From positions 15,891-79,890 of the forward strand of contig JACPFM010000024.1 in the NCBI GenBank assembly GCA_016182965.1: DNA of 64,000 bases, in the 5' to 3' direction. The translations under genes and the position numbers were made by a program. The DNA comes from Deltaproteobacteria bacterium (lineage in GTDB: Bacteria; Myxococcota_A; Polyangia; Polyangiales; JADJMO01). Positions 3,143 through 40,260 of the stretch are shown here, piece by piece. Within the stretch, counting starts at the first letter, position 1. Each line of letters opens with the position of its first letter. Under the pieces are notes generated by a model. That model worked only from the letters and a program-made list of their open reading frames with translations. It did no database searches and was not told the DNA's origin.

Positions 3143-4519
3143 TCAGGCGAGCGGCGCGAAGCGTGCGGTGAAGTGGCGGAGCGCCGGCGGCGACGACACG
3201 ATGCGGTAGCCGCGGAGCTCGTTCGCGCGCTCGGCGACCTTGCAGCAGACCTCGGCCACGAAGTCGACGTGGCTCTGCGTGTACACGCGCCGCGGGATGG
3301 CCAGGCGCACGAGCTCGAGCGCCGAGGGCGCCTCGGTCCCGTCGGGGCGCAGGCCGAACATCACCGAGCCGATCTCGCACCCGCGGACGCCGCCCTCGAG
3401 GTAGAGCGCGGTCGCCACTGCCTGCCCCGGGTACTGCAGCGGCGCGATGTGCGGGCACATCGCGCGCGCGTCGAGGTACACCGCGTGCCCGCCCACCGGT
3501 TCGACGATCGGGATGCCGAAGGCGCGCAGCTTGTCTCCGAGGTACGCCGTCGAGCGGATGCGGTAGCGGAGGTAGTCGTGATCGACGACCTCCTCGAGAC
3601 CGCGCGCGATCGCCTCGAGATCGCGCCCGGCGAGGCCGCCGTAGGTGGGGAAGCCCTCGGTGAGGATCAGCAGCTCGCGGCAGCGACGCGCGAGCTCGTC
3701 GTCGTTCACCGCGAGCCAGCCGCCGATGTTCGCGAGGCCGTCCTTCTTCGCCGACATGGTCATGCCGTCGGCGAGCGCGGCCATGTCGCGGACGATGTCC
3801 TTCACGTCGCGATCGCCCTGCCCCGGCTCGCGCTCGCGGATCATCCAGGCGTTCTCGGCGAAGCGGCAGGAGTCGAGGAACAGCGGGACCGAGAAGCGAT
3901 CGCAGATCGCACGGACGCCGCGCAGGTTCTCGAGGCTGACCGGCTGGCCGCCGCCCGAGTTGTTGGTGATGGTGACGAACACCGCCGGGACGTGGCCGCG
4001 GTGCTCGGTCAACGCGGCCTCGAGCCGGCCGAGGTCCATGTTCCCCTTGAACGGGTGGGTGCTCGACGGGACGCGCCCTTCGGGGATGACCAGGTCGATC
4101 GCGCTCGCGCCCGTGTACTCCACGTTGGCGCGCGTCGTGTCGAAGTGGGTGTTGTTGATGATGACCTTGCCCGGTCCGCCGATCACCGAGAAGAGGATCT
4201 TCTCGGCCGCGCGCCCCTGGTGGGTCGGGATGACGTGGCGGAAGGGGAACAGCGACTTGATCGACGCCTCGAAGCGGAACCACGACGGGCTGCCCGCGTA
4301 GCTCTCGTCGCCGCGCTGGATGCCGGCCCACTGCTCCGAGGACATCGCGCCGGTTCCCGAGTCGGTGAGCAGATCGATGAGCACGTCGTCGGAGTGCAGG
4401 CCGAACAGGTTGTACCCCGCCTCGCGCAGCTTCGCCTCGCGCTCCTGCCGCGTGGTCATGCGGATCGGCTCGACGGACTTGATGCGAAACGGCTCGATGA
4501 TCGTGCGGAACCCGTCCAT
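3143..4519 (-). CDS. PLP-dependent beta-eliminating lyase, tryptophanase / tyrosine phenol-lyase family
   Basis: MDGFRTIIEPFRIKSVEPIRMTTRQEREAKLREAGYNLFGL..DLLTDSGTGAMS..IPTHQGRAAE..GGQPVS..CRFAENAW..MSAKKD (PLP lysine)..EGFPTYGGLAGRD..VEPVGGHAVYLDA..RLAIPRRVYTQSHVDF..LRHFTARF aligns along its whole length with E. coli TnaA and Citrobacter TPL as I recall them. Start taken at the second Met (4519). Confidence 0.9.
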   Translation of the reverse strand: MDGFRTIIEPFRIKSVEPIRMTTRQEREAKLREAGYNLFGLHSDDVLIDLLTDSGTGAMSSEQWAGIQRGDESYAGSPSWFRFEASIKSLFPFRHVIPTHQGRAAEKILFSVIGGPGKVIINNTHFDTTRANVEYTGASAIDLVIPEGRVPSSTHPFKGNMDLGRLEAALTEHRGHVPAVFVTITNNSGGGQPVSLENLRGVRAICDRFSVPLFLDSCRFAENAWMIREREPGQGDRDVKDIVRDMAALADGMTMSAKKDGLANIGGWLAVNDDELARRCRELLILTEGFPTYGGLAGRDLEAIARGLEEVVDHDYLRYRIRSTAYLGDKLRAFGIPIVEPVGGHAVYLDARAMCPHIAPLQYPGQAVATALYLEGGVRGCEIGSVMFGLRPDGTEAPSALELVRLAIPRRVYTQSHVDFVAEVCCKVAERANELRGYRIVSSPPALRHFTARFAPLA

Positions 4520-4554
4520 GCGCGGAGCGTGCGCACGCCGTTCCACGCGCGAAC

Positions 4555-5802
4555 ATGACGACGGTCATGGACATCATGGACAGCCAGCCTCGCGACGCCG
4601 GGCCCGCCTCGTGGCATCGTGCCGCGATGCGCCTCGCGAGCCGACTCGCCGCCGCCGCCGGCCTCATCGGCGCGCATCGCGACGTGCTCGCCGCACGGCC
4701 GGCCGGCTCCGGCGTGCCGGCCGCGCTCGATGCACGCGGGTGGACGGGGTTTCTCGCAGATCTCGGCGACGCATCCGTCGACGCCTTCGAGATCGCCGGC
4801 CTCGACGCTGACTGGAGCGCGGCGCCCCCGTCGCTCGCGGCGATGGTCGCCGAAGCGCGGGCCGTGTGCGCGGTGCCCGAATTGACCGAGGGTGCGCTCG
4901 GGCGCGACGCACCGCGCCATCGCCGTGCGTCGCGGCGCGGCGAGACCCCGCGCAAGTCGGCGCAGATCGACGCGTTCGCGTGGGTGCTCCTCCCGATCGC
5001 GCGCGACGCAGGTCGGATCGTCGACGTCGGCTCGGGGCACGGTCACCTGACCCGCGAGCTCGAGGCGCGGCTCGCGCGCCCGGTGCTCGGGCTCGAGCGC
5101 GACGTCCGCCTCACGGCGCGCGCGCGCTCGCTCGGCGGCGCGTTCGCGGAGACCGACGTGCTCCGCGACGGTCTGCCCCTCGAAGCCGGCGACTGCGTCG
5201 TCGGGCTGCACGCGTGCGGCGAGCTCGGCGACGTGATGGTGCGGAGCGCCGCCGAGCACCGCGCGTCCATCGCGCTCGTCGGCTGCTGCCTGCAGAAGCG
5301 ACGCGACGACGCGCGCGTGCCGCTGTCGGAGGCCGAGCCCGTCCTCGCCACGCGGCTGCTCGGCCTCAGCAACCTCGTCGCGCGCGAGGAGGGCGTCGAG
5401 GCCTCGCGCGCCGACAACCTCGCCGCCCGCGCGCGGCGGCTCGCGCTCCATCGGCTGCTGGTCGAGCGCGTCGGCCCGCTGCGGCTCGGCGCGGAGATGG
5501 ACGGCCTCAACCGGCGCGCCGCCCACGCCGATCTCTCGACGCTCGTCGAGCGGGCGTTCGCGCGGCGAGCGCTCGCGGTCCCGTCCGCGGCCGACGTGCG
5601 CGCGGCCGACGCCTGGGCGCGCGAAGAGCACGCCCGCGCGCGGCGCCTCTCGCTCCCGCGCGCCTTGCTCGCGCGCGTGCTCGAGGTGTTCGTGCTCGCC
5701 GATCGCGCCTGCTTCCTCGAGGCGCACGATCGAGAGGTCGTCGTCGGGAGGGTGTTCCCCGCGGGCGTGAGCGCGCGGAACCTGGCGCTGGTCTCTCGCT
5801 GA
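4555..5802 (+). CDS. SAM-dependent methyltransferase (Methyltransf_32-like)
   Basis: 415-aa ORF with motif I VDVGSGHGHLTRELE and GLHACGELGD..ALVGCCLQK, typical of the PF13679-type family from memory. Divergent from the lyase gene with a 35-nt gap. Confidence 0.65.
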   Translation: MTTVMDIMDSQPRDAGPASWHRAAMRLASRLAAAAGLIGAHRDVLAARPAGSGVPAALDARGWTGFLADLGDASVDAFEIAGLDADWSAAPPSLAAMVAEARAVCAVPELTEGALGRDAPRHRRASRRGETPRKSAQIDAFAWVLLPIARDAGRIVDVGSGHGHLTRELEARLARPVLGLERDVRLTARARSLGGAFAETDVLRDGLPLEAGDCVVGLHACGELGDVMVRSAAEHRASIALVGCCLQKRRDDARVPLSEAEPVLATRLLGLSNLVAREEGVEASRADNLAARARRLALHRLLVERVGPLRLGAEMDGLNRRAAHADLSTLVERAFARRALAVPSAADVRAADAWAREEHARARRLSLPRALLARVLEVFVLADRACFLEAHDREVVVGRVFPAGVSARNLALVSR

Positions 5803-5814: not shown

Positions 5815-6957
5815 TCACGCCAGGGTATCGATCGTCGGGAAGCGCGCGTCTTCCGTGACGCAACCCCAGAGGAAGCACGCAAGACCGAGGTCACCCGTCC
5901 ACAGGGAGTAGCGTCCCTGCCCGTAGCGCGAGCGCGTCGCGTCGCAGCGCGCGATGGCGTTCATCGCGAAGGCCCGCGCACGATCGAGCCACGTCGCGTC
6001 GCCGGTCGCCGCGTGCAGCGCGAGGAACGCATACCCGTTACCGGCGTCGCCGTGACAGAGGTTCGTCCCCTTGCGGAGCGGGCCGGCGCGCTCGATGGCC
6101 GCGCCCGCCGCGCTCAGCGTCGGCAGCGACGCGCGCAGCCCGGCGAGGCCGACCACGAACCCGGGCGCGCCATGGCAGATCTGCATCAGGCGCGGCCGCT
6201 CCCCCGCGGTCGCCGGCCAGCTCGCGAGCTCGCCTTCTCGCACGGCCGTGCGCTCGGTCGCCGCGGCGACGCTCGTCTCGATCTCTTCGCGTACGCGCGG
6301 ATCGAGCAGCGGCGCGGCGCGCAGGAGCACCGCGGCGTTGCCGGCGAACCCGTGCACGAGGCCGAGGTAGCGCTCGGCGCCGCCGAAGAGACGCTGGGAG
6401 AACAGCCCGTCGGCGTCGCGCGTCGACCACATCGAGACGGCGCCGCGGCGCGCCAGCTCGGCGAAGCGGACGTCGCCGGTGCGCGCGTGCACCCGCGTGG
6501 CGACCAGCACGGCGCCGGGCGCGCCGAGCATCAGCTCGTTGGAGGGCAGCGCGAGGCACGCCTCGATCTCTCGCAGCAGCGCGTCCGCGAGCTCGGCGTC
6601 GGGCGCGACGGCGTTCGCGACGGCGAGCGCCCCGAGCCGGCCCATGAGGAACCCGCGTGATCGCGACCGCTCGTCGCACGTCGCGCGCGCGACGTCGCGG
6701 AGCCACGGCGGCGCGCTCGCGACGCCGGCGCGCGCGAGATGATCGATCGCCCACACGACGCCCGCGGTGCCCCAGTAGATCGACGTCGGCGGCGGCGGCC
6801 CGTGGGTCTCGGGCTCGTCGAGCGGATGCACGGGGAAGCCGCGCCCGTCGAACGCCCGCGCGGCGTCGTCGACGACGCGCGCGATGGCGTCGCGCGCGAC
6901 GCGCTCGTCCCAGACCCGCGACGGCAGCTCGAGGTGGCGGTCCGGCTCGAACAGCAT
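5815..6957 (-). CDS. LanC-like (lanthionine synthetase C-like) protein, stand-alone
   Basis: Zn-ligand / active-site motifs of the LanC fold are present: GLVHGFAGNA, MQICHGAPGFV, NLCHGDAGNGYAF. Start moved to the ATG at 6957 because GGAGGGGGG lies directly upstream; the track start at 6987 is a TTG. No signal peptide. Confidence 0.8.
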   Translation of the reverse strand: MLFEPDRHLELPSRVWDERVARDAIARVVDDAARAFDGRGFPVHPLDEPETHGPPPPTSIYWGTAGVVWAIDHLARAGVASAPPWLRDVARATCDERSRSRGFLMGRLGALAVANAVAPDAELADALLREIEACLALPSNELMLGAPGAVLVATRVHARTGDVRFAELARRGAVSMWSTRDADGLFSQRLFGGAERYLGLVHGFAGNAAVLLRAAPLLDPRVREEIETSVAAATERTAVREGELASWPATAGERPRLMQICHGAPGFVVGLAGLRASLPTLSAAGAAIERAGPLRKGTNLCHGDAGNGYAFLALHAATGDATWLDRARAFAMNAIARCDATRSRYGQGRYSLWTGDLGLACFLWGCVTEDARFPTIDTLA

Positions 6958-6987: not shown

Positions 6988-7692
6988 TCACGACCCGAGC
7001 AGCTTGCGGACCTCGGCGATCGGCTTGCCCGCGAAGCGCTTCTTCGCCTCGTCGGCGTTGCTGAACGAGCGGGTGAACATGCGGTCGACGTAGAGCGTGC
7101 CGTCGAGGTGATCGACCTCGTGCTGGAGGATGCGCGCCGGCCAGCCCTTCACCCGCCACACCTGCTCGACGCCGTGCTCGTCGAGCCCGGTGACCTCGAC
7201 CTCGCGGCTGCGCTCCACGAGCCCCACGTAGCCGCGGACGCTCAAGCAGCCCTCGAAGAACGTGGCGCGATCGTCCTTCCCGTCGGAGATCGGGCGGAGC
7301 ACCGGGTTGACGAACACGCGCGGGCCGAACGCGAAGCGCTCGCGCTCCTTGCGCTCCTCGGGCGTGAGCTTCGACATCAGCTCTTCGCGGTCCTCGAGCA
7401 CGATGACGCGCAAGGGGACGCCGATCTGCGGCGCGGCGAGGCCGACGCCGGGCGCCTTGCGCATGGTGTCGATCATGCGGGCGACGAGCGCCTGGAACTC
7501 CGGCGTCGCGATGCGCTCCTTGGGCACCTCCTCGGCGCGCGAGCGCAGCACCGGCTGGCCGATCTGGACGATGTCGGGAGCGGCGGACGCCGAGGGCGAA
7601 GGAGCCGGCGCCGGCGACGACGCGGGCGCAGCCGGGGCGCCGCAGCCGATGGGCGAGAGGACGACGAGGAGGATGCCGAGCGCGCGACGCAT
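6988..7692 (-). CDS. def: peptide deformylase with N-terminal signal/lipoprotein-like extension
   Basis: All three PDF motifs are present: GVGLAAPQIG, EGCLSV, QHEVDHLDG. The N-terminus MRRALGILLVVLSPIGCGAPAAPASSPAPAPSPSASAAP looks like a signal peptide with Cys followed by a Pro/Ala/Ser linker. Confidence 0.9.
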   Translation of the reverse strand: MRRALGILLVVLSPIGCGAPAAPASSPAPAPSPSASAAPDIVQIGQPVLRSRAEEVPKERIATPEFQALVARMIDTMRKAPGVGLAAPQIGVPLRVIVLEDREELMSKLTPEERKERERFAFGPRVFVNPVLRPISDGKDDRATFFEGCLSVRGYVGLVERSREVEVTGLDEHGVEQVWRVKGWPARILQHEVDHLDGTLYVDRMFTRSFSNADEAKKRFAGKPIAEVRKLLGS

Positions 7693-7707: not shown

Positions 7708-8403
7708 TCACGCGGCGCGGAAGTCGACGACGAACGCGTTCGGGGCCTCGGCCTCGACGATCCAGCGCGAGAGCGGGATCCACCGCGCCGCGCGATCGAG
7801 CACGATCGCGTCGGAGGAGGCGGCGATCTCGCCGGCCGCGACGCGCGCGTCGACGTCGCGCGCGAGCTCCACCTCGACGGCGACGGGCCACCCGCGCGCC
7901 GCGTCGCGAACGACGGAGGCGAGCTCGCCCGAGCGGCTGACCGGGGCATCGATGAGGAACGATGTCGACGCCGGCGCGAGCGCCCCGAGCCGCGCGCCGA
8001 CGAGCGCGATCGCTCGCCGGGTGAGGTCGCCCACCCGATGGCTCCCGCGCATCCCCGCGAGATCGCGCAGCGCGCCGTCGCGCCCGACGAGCGCGAGGCC
8101 GCCGCCGAGCGCGACCTCGACGGTGACCAACACATTGAAGCCGTCGACGACGAGCGCCCTGCCCGCCACGTATTCGGGGCGGAGGGCGCGCGCCCTTCGA
8201 GTGGCCGCTACCTCCGCCGCCGCCACGCTCCGCGCGATCGCGCGACGCTGCCGCTCGTCGAGCTGATGTCGACCGCCGACGAACGAGACGGCGCTCGCGA
8301 GCGGGTACCCGCGCCCGAGCAGCCACTCGACCTCCTCGGCGCCTGCGATCACGCGCGCGAGCGCCGCGCCCGTGAACCGGGACTCGTCGAGAGGATCACG
8401 CAT
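7708..8403 (-). CDS. DUF434-like domain protein (hypothetical)
   Basis: ATG at 8403 (cat 8401-8403) gives 231 aa: MRDPLDESRFTGAALARVIAGAEEVEWLLGRGYPLASAVSFVGGRHQLDERQRRAIARSV... The RGYP..FVG..HQL..R pattern matches my memory of DUF434. The upstream part of the track ORF is an Arg-rich artefact. Confidence 0.5.
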   Translation of the reverse strand: MRDPLDESRFTGAALARVIAGAEEVEWLLGRGYPLASAVSFVGGRHQLDERQRRAIARSVAAAEVAATRRARALRPEYVAGRALVVDGFNVLVTVEVALGGGLALVGRDGALRDLAGMRGSHRVGDLTRRAIALVGARLGALAPASTSFLIDAPVSRSGELASVVRDAARGWPVAVEVELARDVDARVAAGEIAASSDAIVLDRAARWIPLSRWIVEAEAPNAFVVDFRAA

Positions 8404-12688: not shown

Positions 12689-13984
12689 CTACCTCCGCGC
12701 GACGAGCACCAGGATCACGATCAACAGCACGACCACGAGCGCGATCAGCGCGGTGTTCGTCTTGTTCGCGGGCGGGGCAGGACCGGGGACAGGCTGCGGC
12801 TGCGGCGGCGGGGGCGCGCTCGAGACCATCGTCTCGGCTGGCGGCGGCGCGGGCGGCATCGGGCTCGCCAGCGTGCCGCTCGACGGCGCCGCCGGTAGCG
12901 CGCCGGCGCTCGCCAGCGTTCCGCTCGAAGGCATGGGCTCGCGCAGGGCGACACCGCTCGCCGGCTCGGGCGCGCGCCGGGTCGAGACGTCCTCCTCCCG
13001 CGGACGCGGCGCGGGCGGGGCCAGCGACGCGCGGGCGGCGCGCTTCGCGCCGAGCACGCCGCTCTCGCGCAGGCCGAGCGCGTCGCGCAGCGCCGCGCGC
13101 ATCTCGCGCGCGTCCGCGAAGCGCGCCTTGGGATCCTTCTCGAGCGCGCGGAGGCAGATCGCTTCCAGCGCAGGATCCGCCGCCGCGCGCAGCGTCGTCG
13201 GCGGCGTGGGCTTCTGGTTGATGTGCGCGAGGAGCAGCTTGACGCTGTTCGACGACTTGAACGGCAGCTGCCCGGTGAGCATGTGATAGAGGATCACGCC
13301 GACCGAGTAGAGATCGCTCCGGCCGTCGAGCGGATCGCCCTTCGCCTGCTCCGGCGCCATGTAGTCGGGCGTGCCGACGAGCGAGCCCGCGATGGTGAGC
13401 GTCGCGGTCGCGGTCGCGGGCGGCTGCGTCGGATCCTTCGGCGGCTCCTGCGTCTTGACCTGCTTCGCGATGCCGAAGTCGCATAGCTTCACGATCTCGG
13501 CCGCGTCGCCGTCGTCGTCCCGACCGACGACGACCATCACGTTCTCCGGCTTGAGATCGCGGTGGACGATGCGCGCGTCGTGCATCACGGCGAGCGCGGC
13601 GAGGAGCTGACCGATCAGCTCGGCGACGCGCGTGCGATCGAGCGGGAAGTCGTCCTTCATGATCGCGCTCAGCGGCCGACCGTCGATCAGCTCCATCGCG
13701 ATGTAGAGGAGATCGCCGTCCTCGCCGAAATCGATCACCCGCATGAGGTTCGGGTGATCGAGCTGCGACGCGGCGTTCGCCTCGCGCTTGAACCGCGCGG
13801 CGTACGTCGGGTCATCGAGGAGCTCGGTGCGCAGCACCTTGATCGCGACCGCGCGGCGCAGGCTCTTCTGCCGCGCGCGGTACACGGCACCCATGCCGCC
13901 GCGACCGATCAAGCACTCGATCTCGAACTTGCCGTCGATCAGCCGCCCGATGAGCGGGTCGGTGGCGGGCTCGGGGCCGAACAT
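12689..13984 (-). CDS. Ser/Thr protein kinase with C-terminal TM anchor
   Basis: [40 protein letters not shown]. Pro/Ala-rich linker and terminal TM segment ALIALVVVLLIVILVLVARR. ATG at 13984 preferred over the GTG at 14005. Confidence 0.9.
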   Translation of the reverse strand: MFGPEPATDPLIGRLIDGKFEIECLIGRGGMGAVYRARQKSLRRAVAIKVLRTELLDDPTYAARFKREANAASQLDHPNLMRVIDFGEDGDLLYIAMELIDGRPLSAIMKDDFPLDRTRVAELIGQLLAALAVMHDARIVHRDLKPENVMVVVGRDDDGDAAEIVKLCDFGIAKQVKTQEPPKDPTQPPATATATLTIAGSLVGTPDYMAPEQAKGDPLDGRSDLYSVGVILYHMLTGQLPFKSSNSVKLLLAHINQKPTPPTTLRAAADPALEAICLRALEKDPKARFADAREMRAALRDALGLRESGVLGAKRAARASLAPPAPRPREEDVSTRRAPEPASGVALREPMPSSGTLASAGALPAAPSSGTLASPMPPAPPPAETMVSSAPPPPQPQPVPGPAPPANKTNTALIALVVVLLIVILVLVARR

Positions 13985-32229: not shown

Positions 32230-33077
32230 TCGTCGGCTCTCTTCTTGGCCGCGCTCTCCCGACCGGCGCGCTTCTTCGGCTTGGCCAACTTCACCTCGGG
32301 CTCAGGCTTCTTCGTCCCGAAGAAGTACACGAGGACGATGGAAAGGAAGTACAGCAGGCACAACGGTACGCTGACCAGGGTCTGGCTGACCACGTCGGGG
32401 GGGCTGAAGATGGCGCCCACCACGAAGGCGATCAGGATGAAGTAGCGACCGAAGCGCCAGAGCTGCCGGTGATCGACCAGCCCGACGATCCCCATGAACA
32501 GGAGGATCAGCGGCAGCTCGAACGACAGCCCGAAGATGAGGATCGTCTGCAGGACGGTGTCGAAGTACCCGCTCACCATCTGCATCGGCGCGATGCGCAT
32601 GTCGGTGCCGGGGATCGGCGTGTGCAGCGTGAAGAAGTACTTGAACGCCATCGGCAGCGCGACGAAGTACGCGAAGGCGCCGCCGGCGACGAAGAGCAGC
32701 GTCGCGAACGTCACGAACGACAGGCTCAGCCGGCGCTCGCGCTTGTAGAGCCCGGGCGCGATGAACGCCCACAGCTGGTAGAACATCGCGGGGCTCGCGA
32801 GGAACAGCGCCGCGTACAGCGCCACCCGCATGTAGACGGTGAACGGCTCGGCGAGCGCGCCGTGCAGCTCCGGCGCGTCCTTGAGGTTCGCGAGCTTCCA
32901 GGCCTTCGCCAGGGGCCGCGTGATGAAGCCGAGCAAGACGTCGGCCTTCCACCAGCAGATCAGGAAGGCGACCACGTAGATCTTGAGCGCGCGGATGATG
33001 CGTAGCCGGAGCTCCGAGAGGTGCTCCAGGAAGGTCATCCGCTTTTCGTCGAGATCGGGGCTGACCGCGGTCGTCAT
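32226..33077 (-). CDS. tatC: twin-arginine translocase subunit TatC
   Basis: MTFLEHLSELRLRIIR, FYQLWAFIAPGLYKRERR, FELPLILLFMGIVGLV. Six TM segments. Confidence 0.92.
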   Translation of the reverse strand: MTTAVSPDLDEKRMTFLEHLSELRLRIIRALKIYVVAFLICWWKADVLLGFITRPLAKAWKLANLKDAPELHGALAEPFTVYMRVALYAALFLASPAMFYQLWAFIAPGLYKRERRLSLSFVTFATLLFVAGGAFAYFVALPMAFKYFFTLHTPIPGTDMRIAPMQMVSGYFDTVLQTILIFGLSFELPLILLFMGIVGLVDHRQLWRFGRYFILIAFVVGAIFSPPDVVSQTLVSVPLCLLYFLSIVLVYFFGTKKPEPEVKLAKPKKRAGRESAAKKRADE

Positions 33078-33562
33078 GTGGCGCGCGCCTCCCCGGGCTC
33101 CGAGCTCGTCGACGTGCGCTCGGCGGACGCCGTGGCCGAACCAGCCCCGGTCGAGGCGGCCACCACGCCCTCGGGGACCTGCAGCTTCGGCAGCTCCGAC
33201 CCGAGCTCGGGGTAGACGAACGAGTCCTCGGGCAAGAGGCCCTGCGCGTCGGCGCCGATCACCGGGTACTCCCGCTCACGGCGGATGCGATCGACCTCGA
33301 CGTTGGGCAGCGACAGCTGCTCGGGCTGCCCGGGCTTGGCGTAGTCCATCCGCTCGATGTGGTCGGCGAGGCGCTCGAGATCCTGGAAGTCGCCGCGGAG
33401 GACCTCGTCGAGGCCGGTCTCCCGACGCACGTCGGTCATCAGCCGCTTGATCGAGCCGATGGTGCGGCCCGCCGTGCGCAAGAGCTTCGGCAGGTCCTTC
33501 GGCCCGATCACGATCAACGCGACCAGCGCTAGGACGACGAGCTCGCCGAAAGAAAAACCCAC
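33074..33562 (-). CDS. TatA/TatB family protein (TatB-like by length)
   Basis: GTG start. MGFSFGELVVLALVALIVIGPKDLPKL followed by an amphipathic helix and a long acidic tail. Overlaps the tatC start by 4 nt. Confidence 0.85.
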   Translation of the reverse strand: MGFSFGELVVLALVALIVIGPKDLPKLLRTAGRTIGSIKRLMTDVRRETGLDEVLRGDFQDLERLADHIERMDYAKPGQPEQLSLPNVEVDRIRREREYPVIGADAQGLLPEDSFVYPELGSELPKLQVPEGVVAASTGAGSATASAERTSTSSEPGEARAT

Positions 33563-33581
33563 GGGGGTGGCAGTCTAGCAA

Positions 33582-33689
33582 GTCGTCCGTCATCAGTCGT
33601 CAGTCGTCAGCGCTGCCACGTCCGGTCGGCTGTGCTTCGCCCCAGCGCGGTTCTCGCCCGATGACTGACGACTGACGACCGATGACTCA
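33582..33689. repeat. inverted heptamer-array cassette between the response-regulator gene and tatB
   Basis: Arm 33582-33610: GTCGTCC GTCATCA GTCGTCA GTCGTCA G. Arm 33662-33689: TGAC TGACGAC TGACGAC CGATGAC TCAG, which contains the regulator stop codon at 33687-33689. The arms are reverse complements (22 nt with 1 mismatch), separated by a roughly 54-nt core. Confidence 0.95.
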
Positions 33690-34295
33690 GAATTCGCCGA
33701 AGAGGTCCTGGATGCGCGCGTCGAGCGACACCGCGATCTTGTAGAGCGAGCTGATCGACGCCGACGACTCGGCGCGCTCGATCTGCGAGAGCAACGACAC
33801 CGACAGCCCCGTGCGCCGCGCCATCCGCTTCAGCGTGCGGATCTTCTCCTTGCGGAAATTCCGGATCGTGTCGCCGATCGCCTTGTGCAGCTGCTCCTCC
33901 GGCGTGCGCGCGAGGCCCTTCTTGCGCATCACACGGTTGAGCACCTCGCGGAACTCGTCGACGTTGAACGGCTTCTTGATGTAGTCGACAGCGTCGAGCT
34001 TCATCGACGCGACCGCCGTCTCGAGGTTCGGGTAGCCGGTGAAGATCACCACCGCGATGTCGCTGTCGACCTTCCGGATGCGCTTCAATACCTCGATGCC
34101 GTCGAGGCGCGGCATCATCAGGTCGAGCACGATCAGGTGGTAGCCGCCGTGGCGGACCTCCTCCTCGACCTGGAGCGGATCGCTGAGCGTCTTGACCTGG
34201 TAGCCATCCCGCTCCAGCAGCGTCTGCATGTAGTCGAGGATCGCGCGCTCATCGTCGACGATGAGGATCTTGATCGCGGGAAGCTGCACGGTCAT
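33687..34295 (-). CDS. response regulator, receiver plus XRE-type HTH
   Basis: ILIVDDE..HLIVLDLMMPRLDG..KP receiver domain. C-terminal LKRMARRTGLSVSLLSQIERAESSASISSLYKIAVSLDARIQDLF is a Cro/C1-type HTH. GC is lower than in neighbouring genes. Confidence 0.85.
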   Translation of the reverse strand: MTVQLPAIKILIVDDERAILDYMQTLLERDGYQVKTLSDPLQVEEEVRHGGYHLIVLDLMMPRLDGIEVLKRIRKVDSDIAVVIFTGYPNLETAVASMKLDAVDYIKKPFNVDEFREVLNRVMRKKGLARTPEEQLHKAIGDTIRNFRKEKIRTLKRMARRTGLSVSLLSQIERAESSASISSLYKIAVSLDARIQDLFGEF

Positions 34296-34473
34296 GCGGT
34301 CCAGTGTAAGCGGATCCGTCCTCGGTGTTCAAGCGGGTCGGCCGGGCCCCGCGCGGCTCGTGCACCGCCCGAAGCTCGAAACGCCGCGGAACCAAGCCGA
34401 TCGCGTGCTGACCCGGTGCGTCACGAGGATCCCTCTTGTCAGGTACGGCGCTTTGACGAATGGTGCGCGACCG

Positions 34474-35670
34474 ATGAGCGTCACGCCCTCCACCAAGAAC
34501 GCCGTTGCGGCGACCGCGGCGCACGAAAACGGCAAGAACGGCGCGGCTCACGTGTTGGGGCCGGCGCTCTCGCCGCTGGTCACGCACGAGCCGGTCCGCG
34601 TGATGCGCGAGGACGGCACGGTCGATCCGGCGCGTGATCCGAAGCTGTCGGACGACCGGCTCGTCGAGCTGTACTCGATGATGGTCCGCACGCGCATCAT
34701 CGACGAGCGCCTCGTGACCTTGCAGCGCCAGGGCCGCATCGGGTTCCACATTGGCTCACTCGGCGAAGAGGCGACGATCATCGGGTCGGCCGCCGCCGCG
34801 CGCCCGCAGGACTGGATCTTCCCCTGCTATCGCGAGTTCGGCGCGCTCCTGCTGCGGGGAATGCCGCTGCAGAGCTACGTCGACAACATGTTCGGCAACG
34901 CGAACGATGCGGTGCGCGGGCGCCAGATGCCCGACCACTACACCGGCAAGCCGTATCATTTCGGCTCCGTCTCCTCCCCCATCGGCACGCAGATCACGCA
35001 GGCTGTCGGCTTCGCGTGGGCGGCCAAGATGAAGAAGGACGACCTGGTCACCCTCGTGTACTTCGGCGAGGGCGCCACCTCGTCGAACGAGTTCCACAAC
35101 GGGGCGAACTTCGCCGGCGTCTTCAAGACCCCCACCGTCTTCCTCTGTCGCAACAACGGGTGGGCCATCAGCATCCCGGCGAGCAAGCAGTCGGCGTCGC
35201 AGACGTTCGCCGACAAGGCCGTCGCCTACGGCATCCGCGGCGTCCGCGTCGACGGCAACGACGTGCTGGCCGTCTACCTCGCCACGCGCGAGGCCATCGA
35301 GCGCGGCTCGCGCGGCGAGGGTTCGACGCTCCTCGAGCTCCTCACCTACCGCCTGTCCGGCCACTCCACGAGCGACGACCCGAAGGCCTACCGCAAGGAC
35401 ACCGAGGTCGAGGCCTGGAAGAGCAAGGACCCGAACGTGCGGTTCCGCGGGTGGCTCGAGCGCCGGGGCCTATGGAACGACGAGAAGCAGACCAGGCTCG
35501 AGGAGGCCGCCGCGGCCGAGCTGCAGGCGTGCGTGCAGGCCGCCGAGAAGGCGCCGACGCCGACGCTCGAGTCGATGTTCGACGACGTGTACGCGGAGCT
35601 GCCCTGGCACCTCCGCGAGCAGCGTGACGAGCTCGTGCGCGGCCCGCGCGCCAAGGGGCACGGACACTGA
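34474..35670 (+). CDS. 2-oxoisovalerate (branched-chain 2-oxoacid) dehydrogenase E1 alpha
   Basis: ATG at 34474. QGRIGFHIGSLGEEA, YREFGALL, TPP motif YFGEGATSSNEFHNGANFA, NNGWAIS, YRLSGHSTSDD. Confidence 0.9.
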   Translation: MSVTPSTKNAVAATAAHENGKNGAAHVLGPALSPLVTHEPVRVMREDGTVDPARDPKLSDDRLVELYSMMVRTRIIDERLVTLQRQGRIGFHIGSLGEEATIIGSAAAARPQDWIFPCYREFGALLLRGMPLQSYVDNMFGNANDAVRGRQMPDHYTGKPYHFGSVSSPIGTQITQAVGFAWAAKMKKDDLVTLVYFGEGATSSNEFHNGANFAGVFKTPTVFLCRNNGWAISIPASKQSASQTFADKAVAYGIRGVRVDGNDVLAVYLATREAIERGSRGEGSTLLELLTYRLSGHSTSDDPKAYRKDTEVEAWKSKDPNVRFRGWLERRGLWNDEKQTRLEEAAAAELQACVQAAEKAPTPTLESMFDDVYAELPWHLREQRDELVRGPRAKGHGH

Positions 35671-35671
35671 G

Positions 35672-35689
35672 GCGCGCCTACCGGCGCGC
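35672..35689 (+). terminator. GC hairpin directly after the E1alpha stop
   Basis: GCGCGCC-TACC-GGCGCGC: 7-bp stem and 4-nt loop, starting 2 nt after TGA (35668-35670). No U-tract, and inside an operon, so it may be a stabiliser or attenuator rather than a terminator. Confidence 0.35.
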
Positions 35690-35690
35690 A

Positions 35691-35718
35691 GTCGTCAGTC
35701 GTCAGTCGTCAGTCATCA
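35691..35718. repeat. heptamer array, stop-proximal arm: (GTCGTCA)x3 + GTCATCA
   Basis: Read directly: gtcgtca gtcgtca gtcgtca gtcatca. Confidence 0.95.
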
Positions 35719-35750
35719 GCCGAGACGCGAGGATGCCCTTGGCGCTGACA

Positions 35751-35764
35751 AGTGAGCGCTCACT
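35751..35764. repeat. perfect 14-bp palindrome AGTGAGCGCTCACT
   Basis: Self-complementary over all 14 positions. It lies between the heptamer arm and the octamer array. Confidence 0.9.
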
Positions 35765-35862
35765 ACTGAGGGAGACTGAGGGACTGAGGGACTGAGGGAC
35801 TGAGGGACTGAGGGACTGAGGGACTGAGGGACTGAGGGACTGAGGGACTGAGGGACTGAGGC
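35765..35862. repeat. tandem octamer array (ACTGAGGG): 11 perfect + 1 imperfect copy
   Basis: First copy at 35765-35772, then a 2-nt AG insert, then 10 perfect copies at 35775-35854, then ACTGAGGC. Eleven GGG tracts are spaced by 5 nt on the coding strand. Confidence 0.95.
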
Positions 35863-35882
35863 ACCGACGACCGACACCCTCT

Positions 35883-35943
35883 CGACTGACGACTGACGAC
35901 TGACGACTGACGACTGACGACTGACGACTGACGACTGACGACT
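35883..35943. repeat. heptamer array, start-proximal arm: (CGACTGA)x8 + CGACT (equivalent to TGACGAC units)
   Basis: Eight perfect units at 35883-35938 plus a partial unit. Followed by GGAG (35945-35948) and the E1beta ATG at 35957. Confidence 0.95.
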
Positions 35944-35956
35944 CGGAGACCGACCG

Positions 35957-36931
35957 ATGCCCCAGATGAACATGGTCCAGGCGATCAACGACGCGCTTCG
36001 CCTGGAGATGCGCAAGAACGACACGGTCGTGGTCCTCGGCGAAGACGTCGGGAAGGTCGGCGGCGTGTTCCGCGTCACCGCCGGGCTCTACGACGAGTTC
36101 GGCGACGACCGCGTCATCGACACGCCCCTGAGCGAGGGCGGGATCATCGGCACCGCGATCGGCATGGCCCTCTACGGCCTCGTGCCGGTGCCCGAGATCC
36201 AGTTCGGCGACTTCATCTTCCCCGCCTACGACCAGATCGTCAGCGAGCTCGCCAAGTTCCGCTACCGCTCCGGCGGCGAGTACGTGAGCAAGCTGGTCAT
36301 CCGCACGCCGGTGGGCGGCGGCATCCGCGGCGGCCACTACCACTCGCAGTCGCCCGAGTCGCAGTTCATCCACGTCGCCGGCCTGAAGGTGGTCTGCCCG
36401 TCGAACCCCTACGACGCCAAGGGCCTCTTGCTCGCGTCGATCCGCGATCCCGATCCCATCCTCTTCTTCGAGCCCAAGCGCATCTACCGCGCGGCCAAAG
36501 GCGAGGTGCCCGAGGGCGAGTACACCGTGCCGCTCGGCAAGGGCCAGATCGTCAAGCCCGGCAAGCACGTGACGGTCGTCGCGTGGGGCGCGATGCTCTA
36601 CGAGGCGCTCGACGCGGCGGCGCAGGCGCAACAGAAGGGCATCGACTGCGAGGTCATCGACCTCCGCACGCTGTGGCCCCTCGACATCGACATCATCGTC
36701 GAGAGCGTGAAGAAGACCGGCCGCGTGATCGTGGTCCACGAGGCGCCGAAGTCCTGCGGGTTCGGCAGCGAGATCGTGGCCCTGATCAACGAGAAGGCGT
36801 TCCTCCACCTCGAGGCGCCGCCGGTGCGCGTCACCGGCTTCGATACGCCGTTCCCCTACACGCTCGAGATGGAGTACCTCCCCCTCGCGCACCGCATCCT
36901 GCCCGCCATCGTGCAGACGGCGCAGTACTAG
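35957..36931 (+). CDS. 2-oxoisovalerate dehydrogenase E1 beta
   Basis: MPQMNMVQAINDALRLEM..VVLGEDVG..GGVFRVT..DTPLSEGGIIG..PEIQFGDF.., transketolase-like pyrimidine-binding and C-terminal domains. Confidence 0.92.
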   Translation: MPQMNMVQAINDALRLEMRKNDTVVVLGEDVGKVGGVFRVTAGLYDEFGDDRVIDTPLSEGGIIGTAIGMALYGLVPVPEIQFGDFIFPAYDQIVSELAKFRYRSGGEYVSKLVIRTPVGGGIRGGHYHSQSPESQFIHVAGLKVVCPSNPYDAKGLLLASIRDPDPILFFEPKRIYRAAKGEVPEGEYTVPLGKGQIVKPGKHVTVVAWGAMLYEALDAAAQAQQKGIDCEVIDLRTLWPLDIDIIVESVKKTGRVIVVHEAPKSCGFGSEIVALINEKAFLHLEAPPVRVTGFDTPFPYTLEMEYLPLAHRILPAIVQTAQY

Positions 36932-36965
36932 TCGTCAGTCATCAGTCATCAGTCATCAGTCATCC
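36931..36965. repeat. heptamer array, stop-proximal arm: GTCGTCA + (GTCATCA)x3 + GTCATCC
   Basis: Begins with the last base of the E1beta TAG (36929-36931). Confidence 0.95.
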
Positions 36966-37030
36966 GGGGGGCCTCGCTCGCCGATGCATGCTTCGAGGTG
37001 ACGGACGCTGACGAAAGAACCGACGGCTCA

Positions 37031-37088
37031 CGACTGACGACTCGCGCGACTGACGACTGACGACTGACGACTGACGACTGACGACTCG
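37031..37088. repeat. heptamer array, start-proximal arm: CGACTGA, CGACTCG, CG, (CGACTGA)x5, CGACTCG
   Basis: Five perfect units at 37047-37081. Followed by GAGGA (37088-37092) and the E2 ATG at 37100. Confidence 0.95.
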
Positions 37089-37099
37089 AGGAACTCAAC

Positions 37100-38524
37100 A
37101 TGGCCCGCTGGGAATTCAAGCTGCCCGACATCGGCGAAGGCGTGACCGAAGGCGAGATCGTCTCCTGGCTCGTGAAGCCGGGTGAGCACGTCAAGGAAGA
37201 CCAGCCGATGGTCGAGGTCATGACCGACAAGGCGACGGTCACCATCACCTCGCCGAAGACGGGGACGATCGCCGAGCTGCACGGCAACGTCGGCCAGGTC
37301 GTGAAGGTGCACGCGGTGCTGGTCAGCTACGACCTCGGCAACGGCGGCACCGCCTCCACCTCCGCGAGCACGTCGGCGGCCGCGGCCCCCTCCCCGAGCG
37401 TCGCGGCGGCGCCTACCGCGCAGTCCGCCGGGCTCGGGACGAAGGCGGCCGGTCCTGCTGCCACGGCGGTCGGCGACATCAGGGAGGATCTGCCGGGCAT
37501 GTCGCTGATGCGCGGCTCGGCCCCGGCCGAAGCCCCGATCGCGGCCGCCGCGCCGGCGACCTCCGGCTACTTCGCCGAGAAGCCGCTCGCCACGCCGGCG
37601 ACGCGCAAGCTCGCGCGCGATCTCGAGGTCGATCTGCGGCGGGTGCCGCCGACGGGCGAGAACGGCCGGGTGACCCGAGACGACGTGCAGCGCTTCAAGG
37701 GCGGAGCCCACGCCAACGGCCACCATGCGCCCGCCGCGCCCGCCGCGCCCGCCGCGGCGCCTCCCGCGCCGGCCGCCGCCCGCGCGCCGGTGGTCATCGC
37801 GCCGCCGGCCGGCAACGCACAGGAGCTCGAGGAGCGCGTCCCCTTCGTCGGCGTGCGCCGCAAGATCGCCGAGCGGATGGCGCAGTCCAAGCACACCGCG
37901 GCGCACTTCACCTTCGTCGAGGAGTGCGACGTCACCGAGCTGAAGAGGGTGCGCGAGCGCCTCAGGCCGCACGCCGAGAAGGCGGGCGTCAAGCTCACGC
38001 CGCTCGCGTTCATCGCCAAGGCGGTCGTCGCCGCGCTGGCCAGGCACCCGACGCTCAACAGCGCGCTCGACGAGTCGACCAACGAGCTGGTCATCCGCAA
38101 GTACGTCAACCTCGGCATCGCCGCCGCGACCGACGCGGGGCTGATGGTCCCGGTGGTCAAGGACGCCGATCGCAAGTCGATCCTCGAGCTCGCGCGCGAC
38201 ATCGAGCGCCTCGGCACCGGCGCGCGCGACGGCAAGCTCAAGCCGCAGGATCTGAGCGGGTCGACGTTCACCATCACGTCGCTCGGCGCGCAGGGCGGCC
38301 TGTTCGCCACGCCGATCATCAACTTCCCCGAGGTGGCGATCCTCGGCGTGCACCAGATCAAGCAGAAGCCGGTGGTGCGCGACGGGCAGATCGTCATCGG
38401 CGAGGTGATGCTCCTGTCGCTCTCGTTCGACCACCGCATCATCGACGGGCACGTCGGCGCGGCGTTCGCTTACGAGGTGATCGGCTACCTGCAGGAGCCC
38501 GATCGGCTGCTCCTCGAGGGCTGA
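37100..38524 (+). CDS. dihydrolipoamide acyltransferase E2 (branched-chain type)
   Basis: Lipoyl domain (VEVMTDKATVTITSP), Ala/Pro linkers, E3/E1-binding domain (ATPATRKLARDLEVDL) and a catalytic domain with SFDHRIIDG. Confidence 0.92.
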   Translation: MARWEFKLPDIGEGVTEGEIVSWLVKPGEHVKEDQPMVEVMTDKATVTITSPKTGTIAELHGNVGQVVKVHAVLVSYDLGNGGTASTSASTSAAAAPSPSVAAAPTAQSAGLGTKAAGPAATAVGDIREDLPGMSLMRGSAPAEAPIAAAAPATSGYFAEKPLATPATRKLARDLEVDLRRVPPTGENGRVTRDDVQRFKGGAHANGHHAPAAPAAPAAAPPAPAAARAPVVIAPPAGNAQELEERVPFVGVRRKIAERMAQSKHTAAHFTFVEECDVTELKRVRERLRPHAEKAGVKLTPLAFIAKAVVAALARHPTLNSALDESTNELVIRKYVNLGIAAATDAGLMVPVVKDADRKSILELARDIERLGTGARDGKLKPQDLSGSTFTITSLGAQGGLFATPIINFPEVAILGVHQIKQKPVVRDGQIVIGEVMLLSLSFDHRIIDGHVGAAFAYEVIGYLQEPDRLLLEG

Positions 38525-38602: not shown

Positions 38603-40150
38603 GTGCCCCGTTTCGATGTGAGCGAAGACGTCCCCAACGGCCCCGCGCCCCCCTCGCCCGAGCCGGCGCAGAGCGGCAGCGTCGCGGCGCGCTCGCAGGT
38701 CGACGAGACCTCGCCCGCGATCTCCGGCCGCGCGCACGCGTGGTTCTGGCTCGCCATCGGCTGCGCGATCGTCGGCGTGGTGCAGGTGCCGCTCGTGCTC
38801 GTCGCCCACCGCGGCGCGGCGCCCCCGACGGCCGTGGCGGCCGCCCCCGCGCCGCCGATCGCGAGCGCCGCCTCCGCGATCGCGACGCCTGCCGCGAGCG
38901 CGCTCCCGCCCGAGCCCGCCACCGCGCCGCGCCTCGCGCAGCTCGAGGGCGACGCGATCGAGGTGCTCCACACCAAGGTCGGCAAGCGCACGTGCGTCCA
39001 GGCGCTCGAGGCGCTCGGCGTCGCTCCCGGCGATCTCGCGCGCGTGTCGACCGCCCGCTCGCCGCTGCGGAAGCTCGACGGCTGCTCGCCGAACGATCGC
39101 GTCTTCGTGGCGCTCGGACGCGCCGATCGTCGGCTGCGCGGCCTCGAGATCGAGACCGCGCCGGGCACCCTCGTGCAGGTCCTCGAGAAGCAGGTCGCCG
39201 GCGAGGCGGGCGCGAGCCTCGAGCTCGTCGCCGAGGCGGTCACGCTGCCGGTGACGCACAAGCGCTTCACGACCTCATTCGTCGTGACGACCGACGTCCC
39301 TTCGGCGGTCGTCGCCGCAGGGCTCGACGGCTCGATCGTCGAGCTGCTCGACGAGGCGATCGGCTCGCGCCACGACGTCCCGGCGCCGGTGCGCGGGTCG
39401 ACCTTCCGGGTGATCGCCGACGCCACGCTCGTCGCGGGCCTGTTCGACCGCTGGGACGAGGTCGTCGCCTTCGAGTACCGCCCGCGCGCCGATCTCGCGC
39501 CCGTGCGCCTCTATCACACGCGCGGGAAGCCCGGCGCGCTCGGCTGGTTCGATCCCAAGGGGCATCAGCCGGTGCGCACGCGGTGGCGCATGCCGCTCGC
39601 CTTCCCGCGCATCACCTCGCGCTTCAACCCGCGGCGGCTCCACCCGGTGCTCAAGGTGGTGATGCCGCACAACGGCTGCGACTTCGCCGCGGCGCCCGGC
39701 ACGCCGGTGTACGCGATCGGCCCCGGCGTGGTGCAGTTCCGCGGCGACAGCGGCCCGAGCGGCAACCTGGTGACCATCGGGCACGAGGGCGGCATCGAGT
39801 CCGGCTACGCGCACCTGTCGCGGTTCGCGCCCGGCGTGGTCGCCGGCACCCACGTCGAGGCGCGCACCGTCGTCGGCTACGTCGGGACGACCGGCCGCTC
39901 GACGGGGCCGCACCTGCACCTCTCGGTGAAGCGCAACGGCGTCTTCGTCGATCCCCTGTCGCTCAAGATGGACGCCTTCCGCGTCGTCCCGCCGAGCGAG
40001 CGCTCCGGCTTCTCCGCGCGCAAGGCGGAGGCCGACGCGCTCCTCGACGCGATCCCGTGGCCGGCCGATCTGCCCGTGGTGGCGGCCCCCGCCGCGGCCT
40101 CCGCCTCCGCCGAACCGGCCGGCGAAGAAGGAGACGAGCCGCTGCACTGA
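38603..40150 (+). CDS. M23 family metallopeptidase, membrane-anchored
   Basis: GTG start. TM segment WFWLAIGCAIVGVVQVPLVLV. HNGCDFAAAPGTPVYA, GYAHLS and GPHLHLSV motifs. Confidence 0.8.
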   Translation: MPRFDVSEDVPNGPAPPSPEPAQSGSVAARSQVDETSPAISGRAHAWFWLAIGCAIVGVVQVPLVLVAHRGAAPPTAVAAAPAPPIASAASAIATPAASALPPEPATAPRLAQLEGDAIEVLHTKVGKRTCVQALEALGVAPGDLARVSTARSPLRKLDGCSPNDRVFVALGRADRRLRGLEIETAPGTLVQVLEKQVAGEAGASLELVAEAVTLPVTHKRFTTSFVVTTDVPSAVVAAGLDGSIVELLDEAIGSRHDVPAPVRGSTFRVIADATLVAGLFDRWDEVVAFEYRPRADLAPVRLYHTRGKPGALGWFDPKGHQPVRTRWRMPLAFPRITSRFNPRRLHPVLKVVMPHNGCDFAAAPGTPVYAIGPGVVQFRGDSGPSGNLVTIGHEGGIESGYAHLSRFAPGVVAGTHVEARTVVGYVGTTGRSTGPHLHLSVKRNGVFVDPLSLKMDAFRVVPPSERSGFSARKAEADALLDAIPWPADLPVVAAPAAASASAEPAGEEGDEPLH

Positions 40151-40171: not shown

Positions 40172-40192
40172 CTTCGACCTTCGACCTTCGAC
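40172..40192. repeat. tandem heptamer (CTTCGAC)x3
   Basis: gCTTCGACCTTCGACCTTCGACcc in the M23 to RavA-like spacer. Confidence 0.9.
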
Positions 40193-40260
40193 CCAGCGCG
40201 CATCCATCGCGGCAACGCTCCGGCCACGCGAGCGCGAAAGTGCACTACGATGGCGCCCCG

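Follow-up and report, generated by a model that had tools for sequence, protein, structure and literature searches.

Three spacers of a Polyangiaceae genome each contain an inverted pair of tandem heptamer arrays that runs from the stop codon of one gene to just before the start codon of the next. They lie in a 64-kb stretch of contig JACPFM010000024.1 (hereafter the window, meaning the whole of the DNA analyzed), in and beside a myxobacterial operon for the E1α, E1β, and E2 subunits of branched-chain keto-acid dehydrogenase. In each of these cassettes, an array of GTCGTCA or GTCATCA units (the G arm, on the left) sits at the upstream stop codon, and an array of the complementary unit TGACGAC (the T arm, on the right) ends shortly 5' of the Shine-Dalgarno (SD) sequence or start codon. 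Within a cassette the arms are always complementary, even where the units of one cassette differ from those of another. Each cassette docks at its outer ends on the stop codon of the gene before it and on the SD or start of the gene after it, and the TGACGAC unit family recurs with the same arm order in many phyla. The cassettes are recent, having arisen in the lineage common to this genome and one close relative, and their turnover is fast, with unit sequence, copy number, and core all changing. Comparison with relatives argues against a conserved regulatory role in the E1α-E1β-E2 operon.

We favor, with a probability of roughly 55%, the reading that the three elements are inverted heptamer simple sequence repeat (SSR) cassettes with an ACTGA-type unit, members of the heptamer class of long SSRs that is sporadically abundant in bacteria, and that they are fast-evolving and either tolerated or mildly modulatory. 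Repeats of this kind have already been described in a few bacteria, and the window adds a GC-rich relative of the published TAACTGA repeat. The first-pass annotation of this DNA had considered known intergenic families (REP/BIME, ERIC, Correia, MIRU) and described them as not built from inverted tandem heptamers. Such families had in fact been reported (Rehm 2015 [PMC4692102]; Aklujkar 2009 [PMC2700814]), and the window unit is a rotation variant of TAACTGA (MacGregor 2015 [PMC4679880]).

Three cassettes with complementary arms

The three spacers separate a response regulator gene from tatB (cassette A, minus strand), E1α from E1β (cassette B), and E1β from E2 (cassette C). By direct reading, all three share the layout (GTCGTCA/GTCATCA)4-5, core, (TGACGAC)4-9 (Table 1), and each is found where the first-pass annotation had placed it. 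In cassette A, the units proper of the G arm (33686-33659) follow directly on the response regulator TGA (33689-33687), and the G of the E1β stop codon TAG (36929-36931) is common to the G arm of cassette C. At the other end, the T arm of cassette B is followed by the SD GGAG (35945-35948) and the E1β ATG at 35957, and the perfect-unit stretch of the cassette C T arm (37051-37086) is followed by the SD GAGGA (37088-37092) and the E2 ATG at 37100. Nineteen nucleotides intervene between the T arm of cassette A and the tatB GTG (33562-33560), where no SD is visible. These assignments at the three starts agree with those made originally, as does the presence of TGA in all three reading frames of the T arm and the lack of stop codons in the G arm.

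Tandem Repeats Finder (TRF) recovered six arrays with 3.6-9 copies and 82%-100% match, which places them among long SSRs, defined as head-to-tail copies of a 5-11-nt unit that exceed chance length. A small correction concerns the T arm of cassette A, which has four units (two perfect and two variant) rather than two or three. A two-unit pattern allowing up to two mismatches matches the 64-kb window 28 times versus 1.45 times expected, and none of 100 shuffles reached 28. The three spacers hold 25 of these matches, and the other three are isolated, with one or two mismatches each. The cores, already described as non-homologous, show no significant homology among the three window cassettes (local alignment, p = 0.3-0.5). 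The octamer GACTGAGG that is repeated in the core of cassette B shares GACTGA with the heptamer, and in the register GGGACTGA it fits the G-quadruplex motif G3N5 on the sense strand.

The expectation that the arms can pair is borne out by predicted long hairpins. The predicted minimum free energies are -76.8 kcal/mol for the cassette A spacer (z-score -6.0), -135.7 kcal/mol for B (z-score -6.3), and -79.6 kcal/mol for C (z-score -3.3). The longest uninterrupted helices are predicted to span 23, 25, and 12 bp, respectively, to be compared with the ~20 bp or more of double-stranded RNA expected of a stem that RNase III processes in vivo. A sense-strand RNA signature, with G·U pairs in the sense strand and A·C in the antisense strand, proved to be mixed, and the RNA-level reading that had been proposed finds no support in it. 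Cassettes A and B of the window are predicted to fold better as sense RNA, whereas cassette C and all three cassettes of the relative L108 (see below) fold better as antisense (four of six), because GTCATCA opposite TGACGAC gives A·C in the sense strand and G·U in the antisense strand. Neither an intrinsic terminator (a GC-rich stem with a U-tract) nor a sigma-70-like promoter was found in the three spacers.

Turnover among relatives and recurrence in other genomes

The set of orthologues comprised 83 operons (L108 to L190), 80 of which are further operons from metagenomes. Heptamer cassettes occur in one of the 83, L108 from a JGI metagenome, whose E1β is 94% identical to that of the window (90% in nucleotide sequence, 79% when only third codon positions are counted). 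The gene order of L108 is that of the window, and its cassettes lie in the same three spacers. In spacer A, the unit is also the same (GTCATCA/TGACGAC) and the flanks are conserved; the arms are nearly identical to those of the window, while the core is wholly diverged and cannot be aligned. Spacer B uses GTCYAGA…YCTAGAC instead, and spacer C uses GTCGACA/GTTAACA…TGTCGAC, of which the TGTCGAC arm is free of stop codons. Across the same spacers, then, unit, copy number, and core all differ between the window and L108, the kind of rapid change by which long SSRs are recognized.

Despite three unit types, the arms are complementary in all six cassettes of these two genomes. In both genomes, it is the G arm and not the T arm that collects variant GTCATCA units, and the T-arm-type arrays all fit (GACT+N3-4)n, in the forms GACTGAC, GACTCTA, GACTGTC, and GACTGAGG.

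Other relatives have short junctions. The spacers of L109 (90% identity) measure 50-75 nt and lack arrays. Chondromyces crocatus has an E1α-E1β spacer of 69 nt and abutting E1β and E2 genes, again without arrays, and the E1α-E1β spacer of P0003 (93% identity) is 39 nt long as judged from gene coordinates. In the other orthologous operons, the median spacers are ~35 and ~15 nt, and none of the 80 further operons has a heptamer cassette. Over 433 kb of relatives, TRF returned seven rows for period-7 arrays, and five of the six stronger ones listed belong to L108. Because only one operon in 83 has heptamer cassettes, and these differ from those of the window in core and, in two of the three spacers, in unit, we regard the cassettes as lineage-specific and fast-evolving. 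They are therefore not a conserved device for segmenting the operon messenger RNA (mRNA), since 82 of the 83 orthologous operons lack them.

The core of cassette A has no significant similarity to the L108 core or to the L109 spacer. Two related ideas, that the core is the ancestral spacer and that the inner hairpins of the window and L108 are homologous, looked plausible by eye and were not significant (p = 0.04-0.8). P0004 (423 aa; L191, 314-1585) was considered as a case of spacer read-through and rejected, as this E1β gene, from a short metagenome contig, is chimeric or duplicated internally and is unrelated to the cassettes. Two more distant operons of the set, L187 (~4475-4750) and L189 (~4475-4741), have an inverted hexamer cassette of the same architecture, (CGTGCC)n … (GGCACG)n, in the E1β-E2 spacer. 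L108 also carries (CGCCCCG)x7.7 at 4353-4406 in the divergent intergenic region between the response regulator and E1α genes, where the window has no array.

The shared polarity of the three window cassettes relative to transcription had been taken as an argument for an RNA-level function. The reverse complement of an arm, a core, and the complementary arm is again the same arm, the reverse complement of the core, and the same complementary arm. Arm order is thus identical on both strands by construction, and therefore it carries no strand or RNA-level information. The informative questions are instead whether this order is preferred over the opposite palindrome, TGACGAC…GTCGTCA, and how arrays without a partner are oriented relative to genes.

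Both questions can be addressed by searching a single genome of each species for three TGACGAC units (a register-specific 21-mer), a scan that yielded at least 107 loci. The counts in the remainder of this section are among the matches listed, and genes at these foreign loci were called by a home-made GC3/RNY rule. The arrays come from ~15 phyla with GC contents of 36%-74%, including Acidobacteriota, Chloroflexota, Bacteroidota, Actinomycetota, Planctomycetota, Verrucomicrobiota, Cyanobacteria, Patescibacteria, Omnitrophota, Gemmatimonadota, Myxococcota, an archaeon, and others, and some single genomes contribute several loci. Period 7 is enriched at the foreign loci (370 TRF rows versus 54 for period 6), and TGACGAC is mixed there with TGACAAC, TGACCAC, TGATGAC, and TGATAAC (e.g., in L024), the last of which is a rotated TAACTGA. 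A scan of 2.9 million viral contigs gave only five matches.

With a degenerate unit definition, neighboring arms at foreign loci run from G to T in 16 cases and from T to G in one. With TRF consensus units, and with the window and L108 included, the order is 21 to one. Neighboring heptamer arrays at foreign loci are inverted complements in 35 cases versus direct copies of the same unit in four, and the cores of foreign cassettes range from 3 to >200 nt. Stop codon content was rejected as a general cause of arm order, because cassettes built from other units run from the stop-containing to the open arm in five cases and the reverse in three.

Docking on gene ends also recurs. Fourteen cassettes have callable genes on both sides, and these genes are co-directional in 10; the remainder include convergent and divergent pairs. 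Of the 10 co-directional cassettes, eight sit -4 to +8 nt from the stop of the upstream gene and nine sit 3-28 nt from the start of the downstream gene; most fill the spacer from stop to start. The arrangement first noticed in the window is therefore found as a spacer-filling unit in foreign genomes. Within 30 nt after stops, G-type arrays outnumber T-type arrays 38 to 12; within 30 nt before starts, T-type arrays outnumber G-type arrays 22 to five, a count inflated because the T arm contains stops that enter the definition of an open reading frame (ORF). The orientation bias relative to genes is also present in arrays for which no partner was detected, with 27 G versus 10 T after stops and 13 T versus four G before starts. 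Array and stop codon often share one register, examples being TAG|TCGTCA and TGA|GTCGTCA, and arrays within ORFs have the stop-free orientation in 30 cases and the opposite one in a single case. ATG-containing TGATGAC makes up 2.2% of units before starts versus 7.3% after stops.

Two properties were considered for these arrays and rejected. A preference for about four units, as in the Xanthomonas report, was suggested by a raw length peak at 25-30 nt that vanishes after correction for the register-specific 21-mer search. Polar array growth is contradicted by a residual periodicity that decays equally on both flanks (p = 0.7).

Several individual loci are worth recording. In the Patescibacteria loci L012 (2-29) and L017 (4208-4235), four GTCGTCA units and degenerate heptamers lie in frame within a long ORF, just upstream of a motif that we take to be GyrB-like. 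Such cases suggest that a coding sequence can tolerate inserted heptamer arrays when they have the stop-free orientation. L091, a metagenome-assembled Polyangia genome, has several heptamer arrays within 8 kb (308-408, 2715-2798, 6710-6800, and 7127-7160) with the units GGGCCTC, CCGAAGT, CTGACGA, CCTCGGG/GAGGCCC, and GACTTCG, and one TGACGAC cassette between convergent stop codons. L047 (Desulfococcaceae HSG8) has very long mixed arrays of TGACGAC, TGACCAC, TGCCCAC, and TGACAAC (5-305, 1422-1659, and 7847-8000). These are partly in open frames of ~3.8 kb in the stop-free orientation and may represent a repeat-encoded protein region or an ORF artifact.

The genes flanking the window cassettes were assigned with Pfam (TatC, TatA_B_E, REC+HTH_3, E1_dh, Transket_pyr/Transketolase_C, and lipoyl/E3_binding/2-oxoacid_dh). 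The gene after E2 matches Peptidase_M23, which rules out E3 (lipoamide dehydrogenase) at this position. The window E1β is 87% identical to that of C. crocatus, and its best matches are in Polyangiaceae/Polyangiales; exact-protein look-ups for E1β and the response regulator gave no match. Two other repeats were seen in the window. Three perfect CTTCGAC heptamers lie at 40172-40193, 21 nt past the stop codon of the M23 peptidase gene, with no inverted partner seen nearby, and a GC-rich tandem repeat at 13028-13124 has a period of 19/38 nt (TRF, 2-4.7 copies, 70%-80% match).

Table 1. Cassette parts and neighboring features in window coordinates
Feature	Position	Strand	Description
Cassette A G arm	33659..33689	minus	mRNA sense TGA GTCATCG GTCGTCA GTCGTCA GTCATCG; includes response regulator stop (33687-33689); TRF 33663-33687
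Cassette A core	33610..33658	minus	~50 nt, unique
Cassette A T arm	33582..33609	minus	mRNA sense TGACGAC TGACGAC TGATGAC GGACGAC
Short GC hairpin	35671..35690	plus	GGCGCGCC-tacc-GGCGCGC, between E1α stop (35668-35670) and cassette B G arm
Cassette B G arm	35691..35718	plus	GTCGTCA x3 + GTCATCA
Cassette B core	35719..35886	plus	11 perfect GACTGAGG octamers and degenerate inner units (…CTCTCGAC)
Octamer array in cassette B core	35774-35861	plus	11 perfect GACTGAGG; register GGGACTGA fits G3N5
Cassette B T arm	35887..35943	plus	8 perfect TGACGAC; TRF 8.7 copies over 35883-35943
Cassette C G arm	36929..36965	plus	GTCGTCA + GTCATCA x3-4; units 36931-36965 overlap E1β stop
Cassette C core	36966..37021	plus	unique sequence
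Cassette C T arm	37022..37086	plus	degenerate units 37022-37050, then 5 perfect TGACGAC 37051-37085
Response regulator (REC+HTH)	33687-34295	minus	Pfam
TatA/B-family gene (tatB)	33074-33562	minus	Pfam
Peptidase_M23 gene, next after E2	38603-40150		Pfam

Origin, maintenance, and competing explanations

If the cassettes are tolerated SSR insertions, their arrays would grow by slipped-strand replication. The complementarity of the arms could be kept by arm-to-arm copying, through intramolecular template switching at a quasi-palindrome, and/or by the tolerance of only those insertions that can pair with themselves. On polycistronic mRNA, a cassette would form a long hairpin with the stop codon of one gene and the SD of the next held close to each other at the base of the stem. 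In an operon where relatives have junctions that are short or overlap, an insertion of 100-290 nt would thereby be looped out. Overall, the effect would probably be near-neutral or mildly modulatory, and a hairpin so near the stop codon may affect upstream termination, mRNA stability, or cleavage.

Several observations weigh against this account. Slippage and hairpin tolerance do not explain an arm order fixed at 21 to one among the matches listed, and stop codon content provides no general rule for it either, given the five versus three cases with other units. The near-identical arms and diverged cores of cassette A in the window and L108 fit purifying selection on the arms equally well. The presence of three cassettes within 3.5 kb and none elsewhere in the 64 kb, together with their presence in the same three spacers of L108, looks non-random, and with one unit family spread over ~15 phyla, there is a hint that some specific mechanism or function is involved. 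The counts at foreign loci depend on home-made gene calls and, on the start side, are biased by the stops of the T arm, and the looped-out neutral insertion is an inference. Because of the fixed arm order, the three neighboring spacers occupied in two genomes, and the conserved arms of cassette A, rivals that invoke a dedicated mechanism, or selection for a role in RNA or translation, stay alive.

A wider and more tentative reading is that ACTGA-type inverted heptamer cassettes may constitute one cross-phylum class of intercistronic and intergenic elements, which would be made or kept by a specific mechanism. A dedicated enzyme could play this part, or selection could act for a function linked to translation, for example the juxtaposition of stop and start. 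This class would be distinguished by the order (GTnnTCA)n then (TGAnnAC)n, by ends docked on a stop codon and SD, and by co-variation of whole arms. If true, it would make the reports from Xanthomonas, Geobacter, Beggiatoaceae, and cyanobacteria facets of a single phenomenon. Any mechanism must respect two rules: the 21 to one arm order of the ACTGA-type family, and the docking on stop codon and SD.

We think it rather unlikely that the cassettes are a selected RNA-level device. Such a device would provide intercistronic hairpins for processing or stability (RNase III sites, or barriers to 3' exonucleases like those of REP/BIME) or long-range stems for translational coupling, and would tune subunit stoichiometry. 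In the coupling variant, a ribosome terminating at the stop codon would melt the stem base and free the SD. The stable stems of 23-25 bp predicted for cassettes A and B are consistent with such a role. So is the placement of the G arm 0-19 nt from the stop codon and of the T arm end at the SD, which is repeated in foreign co-directional cassettes among the matches listed, and so is the conservation of the arms but not the core of cassette A. Hairpins of REP elements within ~15 nt of a stop codon reportedly lower expression of the upstream gene, a finding associated with Liang, Rudd and Deutscher in 2015. There is also precedent in the (ATCTTTC)n hairpin of hmw1A, which is processed by RNase III (PMC12721329). 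However, 82 of 83 orthologous operons, including those of relatives at 90%-93% identity, manage without cassettes. The sense strand has no folding advantage and carries A·C mismatches in cassette C and in all three L108 cassettes, foreign cassettes also lie between convergent and divergent genes, and no Rfam family matches positions 33000-37600 at E ≤ 1.

Less probable still is that the T arm is the functional part. By analogy with the role in translation initiation proposed for TAACTGA in Beggiatoaceae (MacGregor 2015 [PMC4679880]), it would serve as an (NNACUGA)n leader directly before the SD or start that offers a standby site or is bound by S1, Csp, or CsrA-like proteins, with the G arm as a by-product or modulator. 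The ACTGA core and the start-ward orientation match the repeats of the BOGUAY genome, whose sets face a start codon in 147 of 170 cases (PMC4679880). The excess of T over G arrays before starts (22 to five) would follow from such a role, but this count is biased by the definition of an ORF, and among the matches listed the reverse-oriented arrays on the stop side (38) outnumber the arrays on the start side (22). The scarcity of TGATGAC before starts and the concentration of GTCATCA variants in the G arm are further points in its favor. Against this, the T arms of L108 at the same genes use other units, including the stop-free TGTCGAC, and close relatives do without any array.

A non-autonomous mobile element, similar to a miniature inverted-repeat transposable element (MITE) or a REPIN, could use the heptamer arrays as terminal inverted repeats, be mobilized in trans, and spread horizontally among phyla; we consider this very unlikely. 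Inverted arms in a fixed order, the breadth of ~15 phyla, several loci from some genomes, and three clustered copies in the window are all features that mobility could produce. MITEs have conserved internal sequence, however, and the cores here are unrelated between copies and vary from 3 to >200 nt among the matches listed. Neither target-site duplications nor flanking direct repeats are evident in the window or L108, the number and sequence of arm units vary continuously, the viral contigs are nearly devoid of matches, and the Xanthomonas arrays are not associated with insertion sequences or transposons (Rehm 2015 [PMC4692102]).

An even fainter prospect is that the paired tandem repeats would be DNA-level binding sites for a nucleoid or global regulator (IHF/HU-like), as proposed for the paired 7-9-mer sites of Geobacter metallireducens. 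Those sites, including a pair between proB and proA (Aklujkar 2009 [PMC2700814]), have the same architecture, and this property is strand-symmetric. In Xanthomonas, array polarity is toward the nearest ORF, independent of ORF orientation (Rehm 2015 [PMC4692102]). The three unit types of L108 nevertheless make a poor fit to a single binding protein, copy number is unconstrained (four to nine units), and our literature search found experimental support for DNA binding in none of the systems compared. Finally, tandem repeats are prone to misassembly, but an assembly artifact is highly improbable given the near-identical cassette A at the same place in the independent metagenome assembly of L108, array lengths of 28-88 nt, which we assume to be shorter than typical sequencing reads, and TGACGAC arrays in >100 independent genomes.

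The locus offers a clean natural experiment, with three cassettes in one well-understood operon, one relative with different units, and other close relatives with none. Effects on mRNA processing, translational coupling, and subunit ratios, as well as the upkeep of arm complementarity, are therefore directly testable.

Comparison with known repeat systems

The REP, BIME, and REPIN elements of enterobacteria and pseudomonads combine inverted arms with a variable linker in intercistronic spacers, and their mRNA hairpins influence stability as well as translation upstream. A REP is one imperfect palindrome of ~20-40 nt whose head (GTAG) is conserved and which RAYT transposases mobilize. The likeness to the window cassettes is one of analogy in how they work. 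REPs do not form tandem arrays, and the window arms consist of tandem heptamers.

A heptamer SSR that works as RNA is known from Haemophilus influenzae hmw1A, where (ATCTTTC)n forms one arm of a long mRNA hairpin in the 5' untranslated region, RNase III cleaves the hairpin, and copy number tunes expression (PMC12721329). The window heptamers are likewise predicted to form an arm of a long mRNA hairpin. In contrast to the window, hmw1A is a phase-variation locus in a 5' untranslated region and promoter context of a host-adapted pathogen, and its second arm is G-rich rather than an inverted array. More generally, heptamers are the most abundant class of long SSRs in many bacteria, their richest genomes are scattered over the phylogeny, and polymerase slippage has been proposed as their origin (Mrázek 2007, as reported in citing work). 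No study found in our literature search assigns a function to such arrays, and the search returned no match to the exact repeat sequence. Long-SSR heptamers and the heptamers among cyanobacterial short tandemly repeated repetitive sequences are descriptive classes, and as presented in the citing work, inverted pairing and docking on gene ends lie outside their definition.

The paired sites of G. metallireducens lie on opposite strands at a variable distance from each other and consist of 3-5 tandem 7-9-mers each. The consensus of class 3 is MTYCTGA, and one pair lies between two co-transcribed genes; the sites are absent from the sister species (Aklujkar 2009 [PMC2700814]). The window cassettes share the paired tandem architecture, the intercistronic case, and the absence from relatives. 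They differ in that the Geobacter sites have other units and are read as binding sites for a global regulator (IHF/HU), with no description of docking on stop codon and SD.

TAACTGA occurs as direct repeats in marine Beggiatoaceae, cyanobacteria, and Bacteroidetes, is reversed inside ORFs or after stops, and is missing from close relatives, which have shorter spacers (MacGregor 2015 [PMC4679880]). Written as CGACTGA, a rotation of TGACGAC, the window unit is identical to TAACTGA at five of seven positions and shares ACTGA with it, so that the two are related and not the same. The likeness extends to placement. The window T arm lies in forward orientation 13-19 nt before the start codons and places stops in three frames, the reverse orientation is found in ORFs or after stops, and close relatives with shorter spacers lack arrays. 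The BOGUAY sets, however, are short (two to six units) and direct, with one inverted case only, and mostly have no SD, and single-base variants are rare as repeats in that genome (PMC4679880). The window arrays are paired and have an SD at E1β and E2.

A close parallel in architecture is the GGGAATC heptamer of Xanthomonas, the type also seen in Nostoc, whose arrays are mostly intergenic and include 70-75 inverted convergent pairs per genome (Rehm 2015 [PMC4692102]). In that system, the array on the coding strand (G-strand) lies 0-50 bp from a stop codon or overlaps it, and the complement lies 0-50 bp upstream of ORFs. Many arrays lie between corresponding genes across related species while varying extensively in length and sequence, and no function has been found for them (PMC4692102). 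All three window cassettes are likewise pairs of closely spaced, convergent arrays of the same tandem heptamer on opposite strands. In the window and at foreign loci, one array has an end that touches or overlaps a stop codon, and the complementary array borders on the ORF that follows. Apart from the different taxon, the systems are distinguished by the stop-to-SD cassette within operons, which is not part of the Xanthomonas description, and by the unit itself, as GGGAATC is G-rich and forms G-quadruplexes (PMC4692102). GTCGTCA and TGACGAC lack a G-tract, and in the window cassettes only the GGGACTGA octamer of core B fits G3N5. The preference of arrays for the stop side, which was discussed for Xanthomonas with regard to G-quadruplexes (Rehm 2015 [PMC4692102]), therefore holds as well for a unit that is unable to form one.

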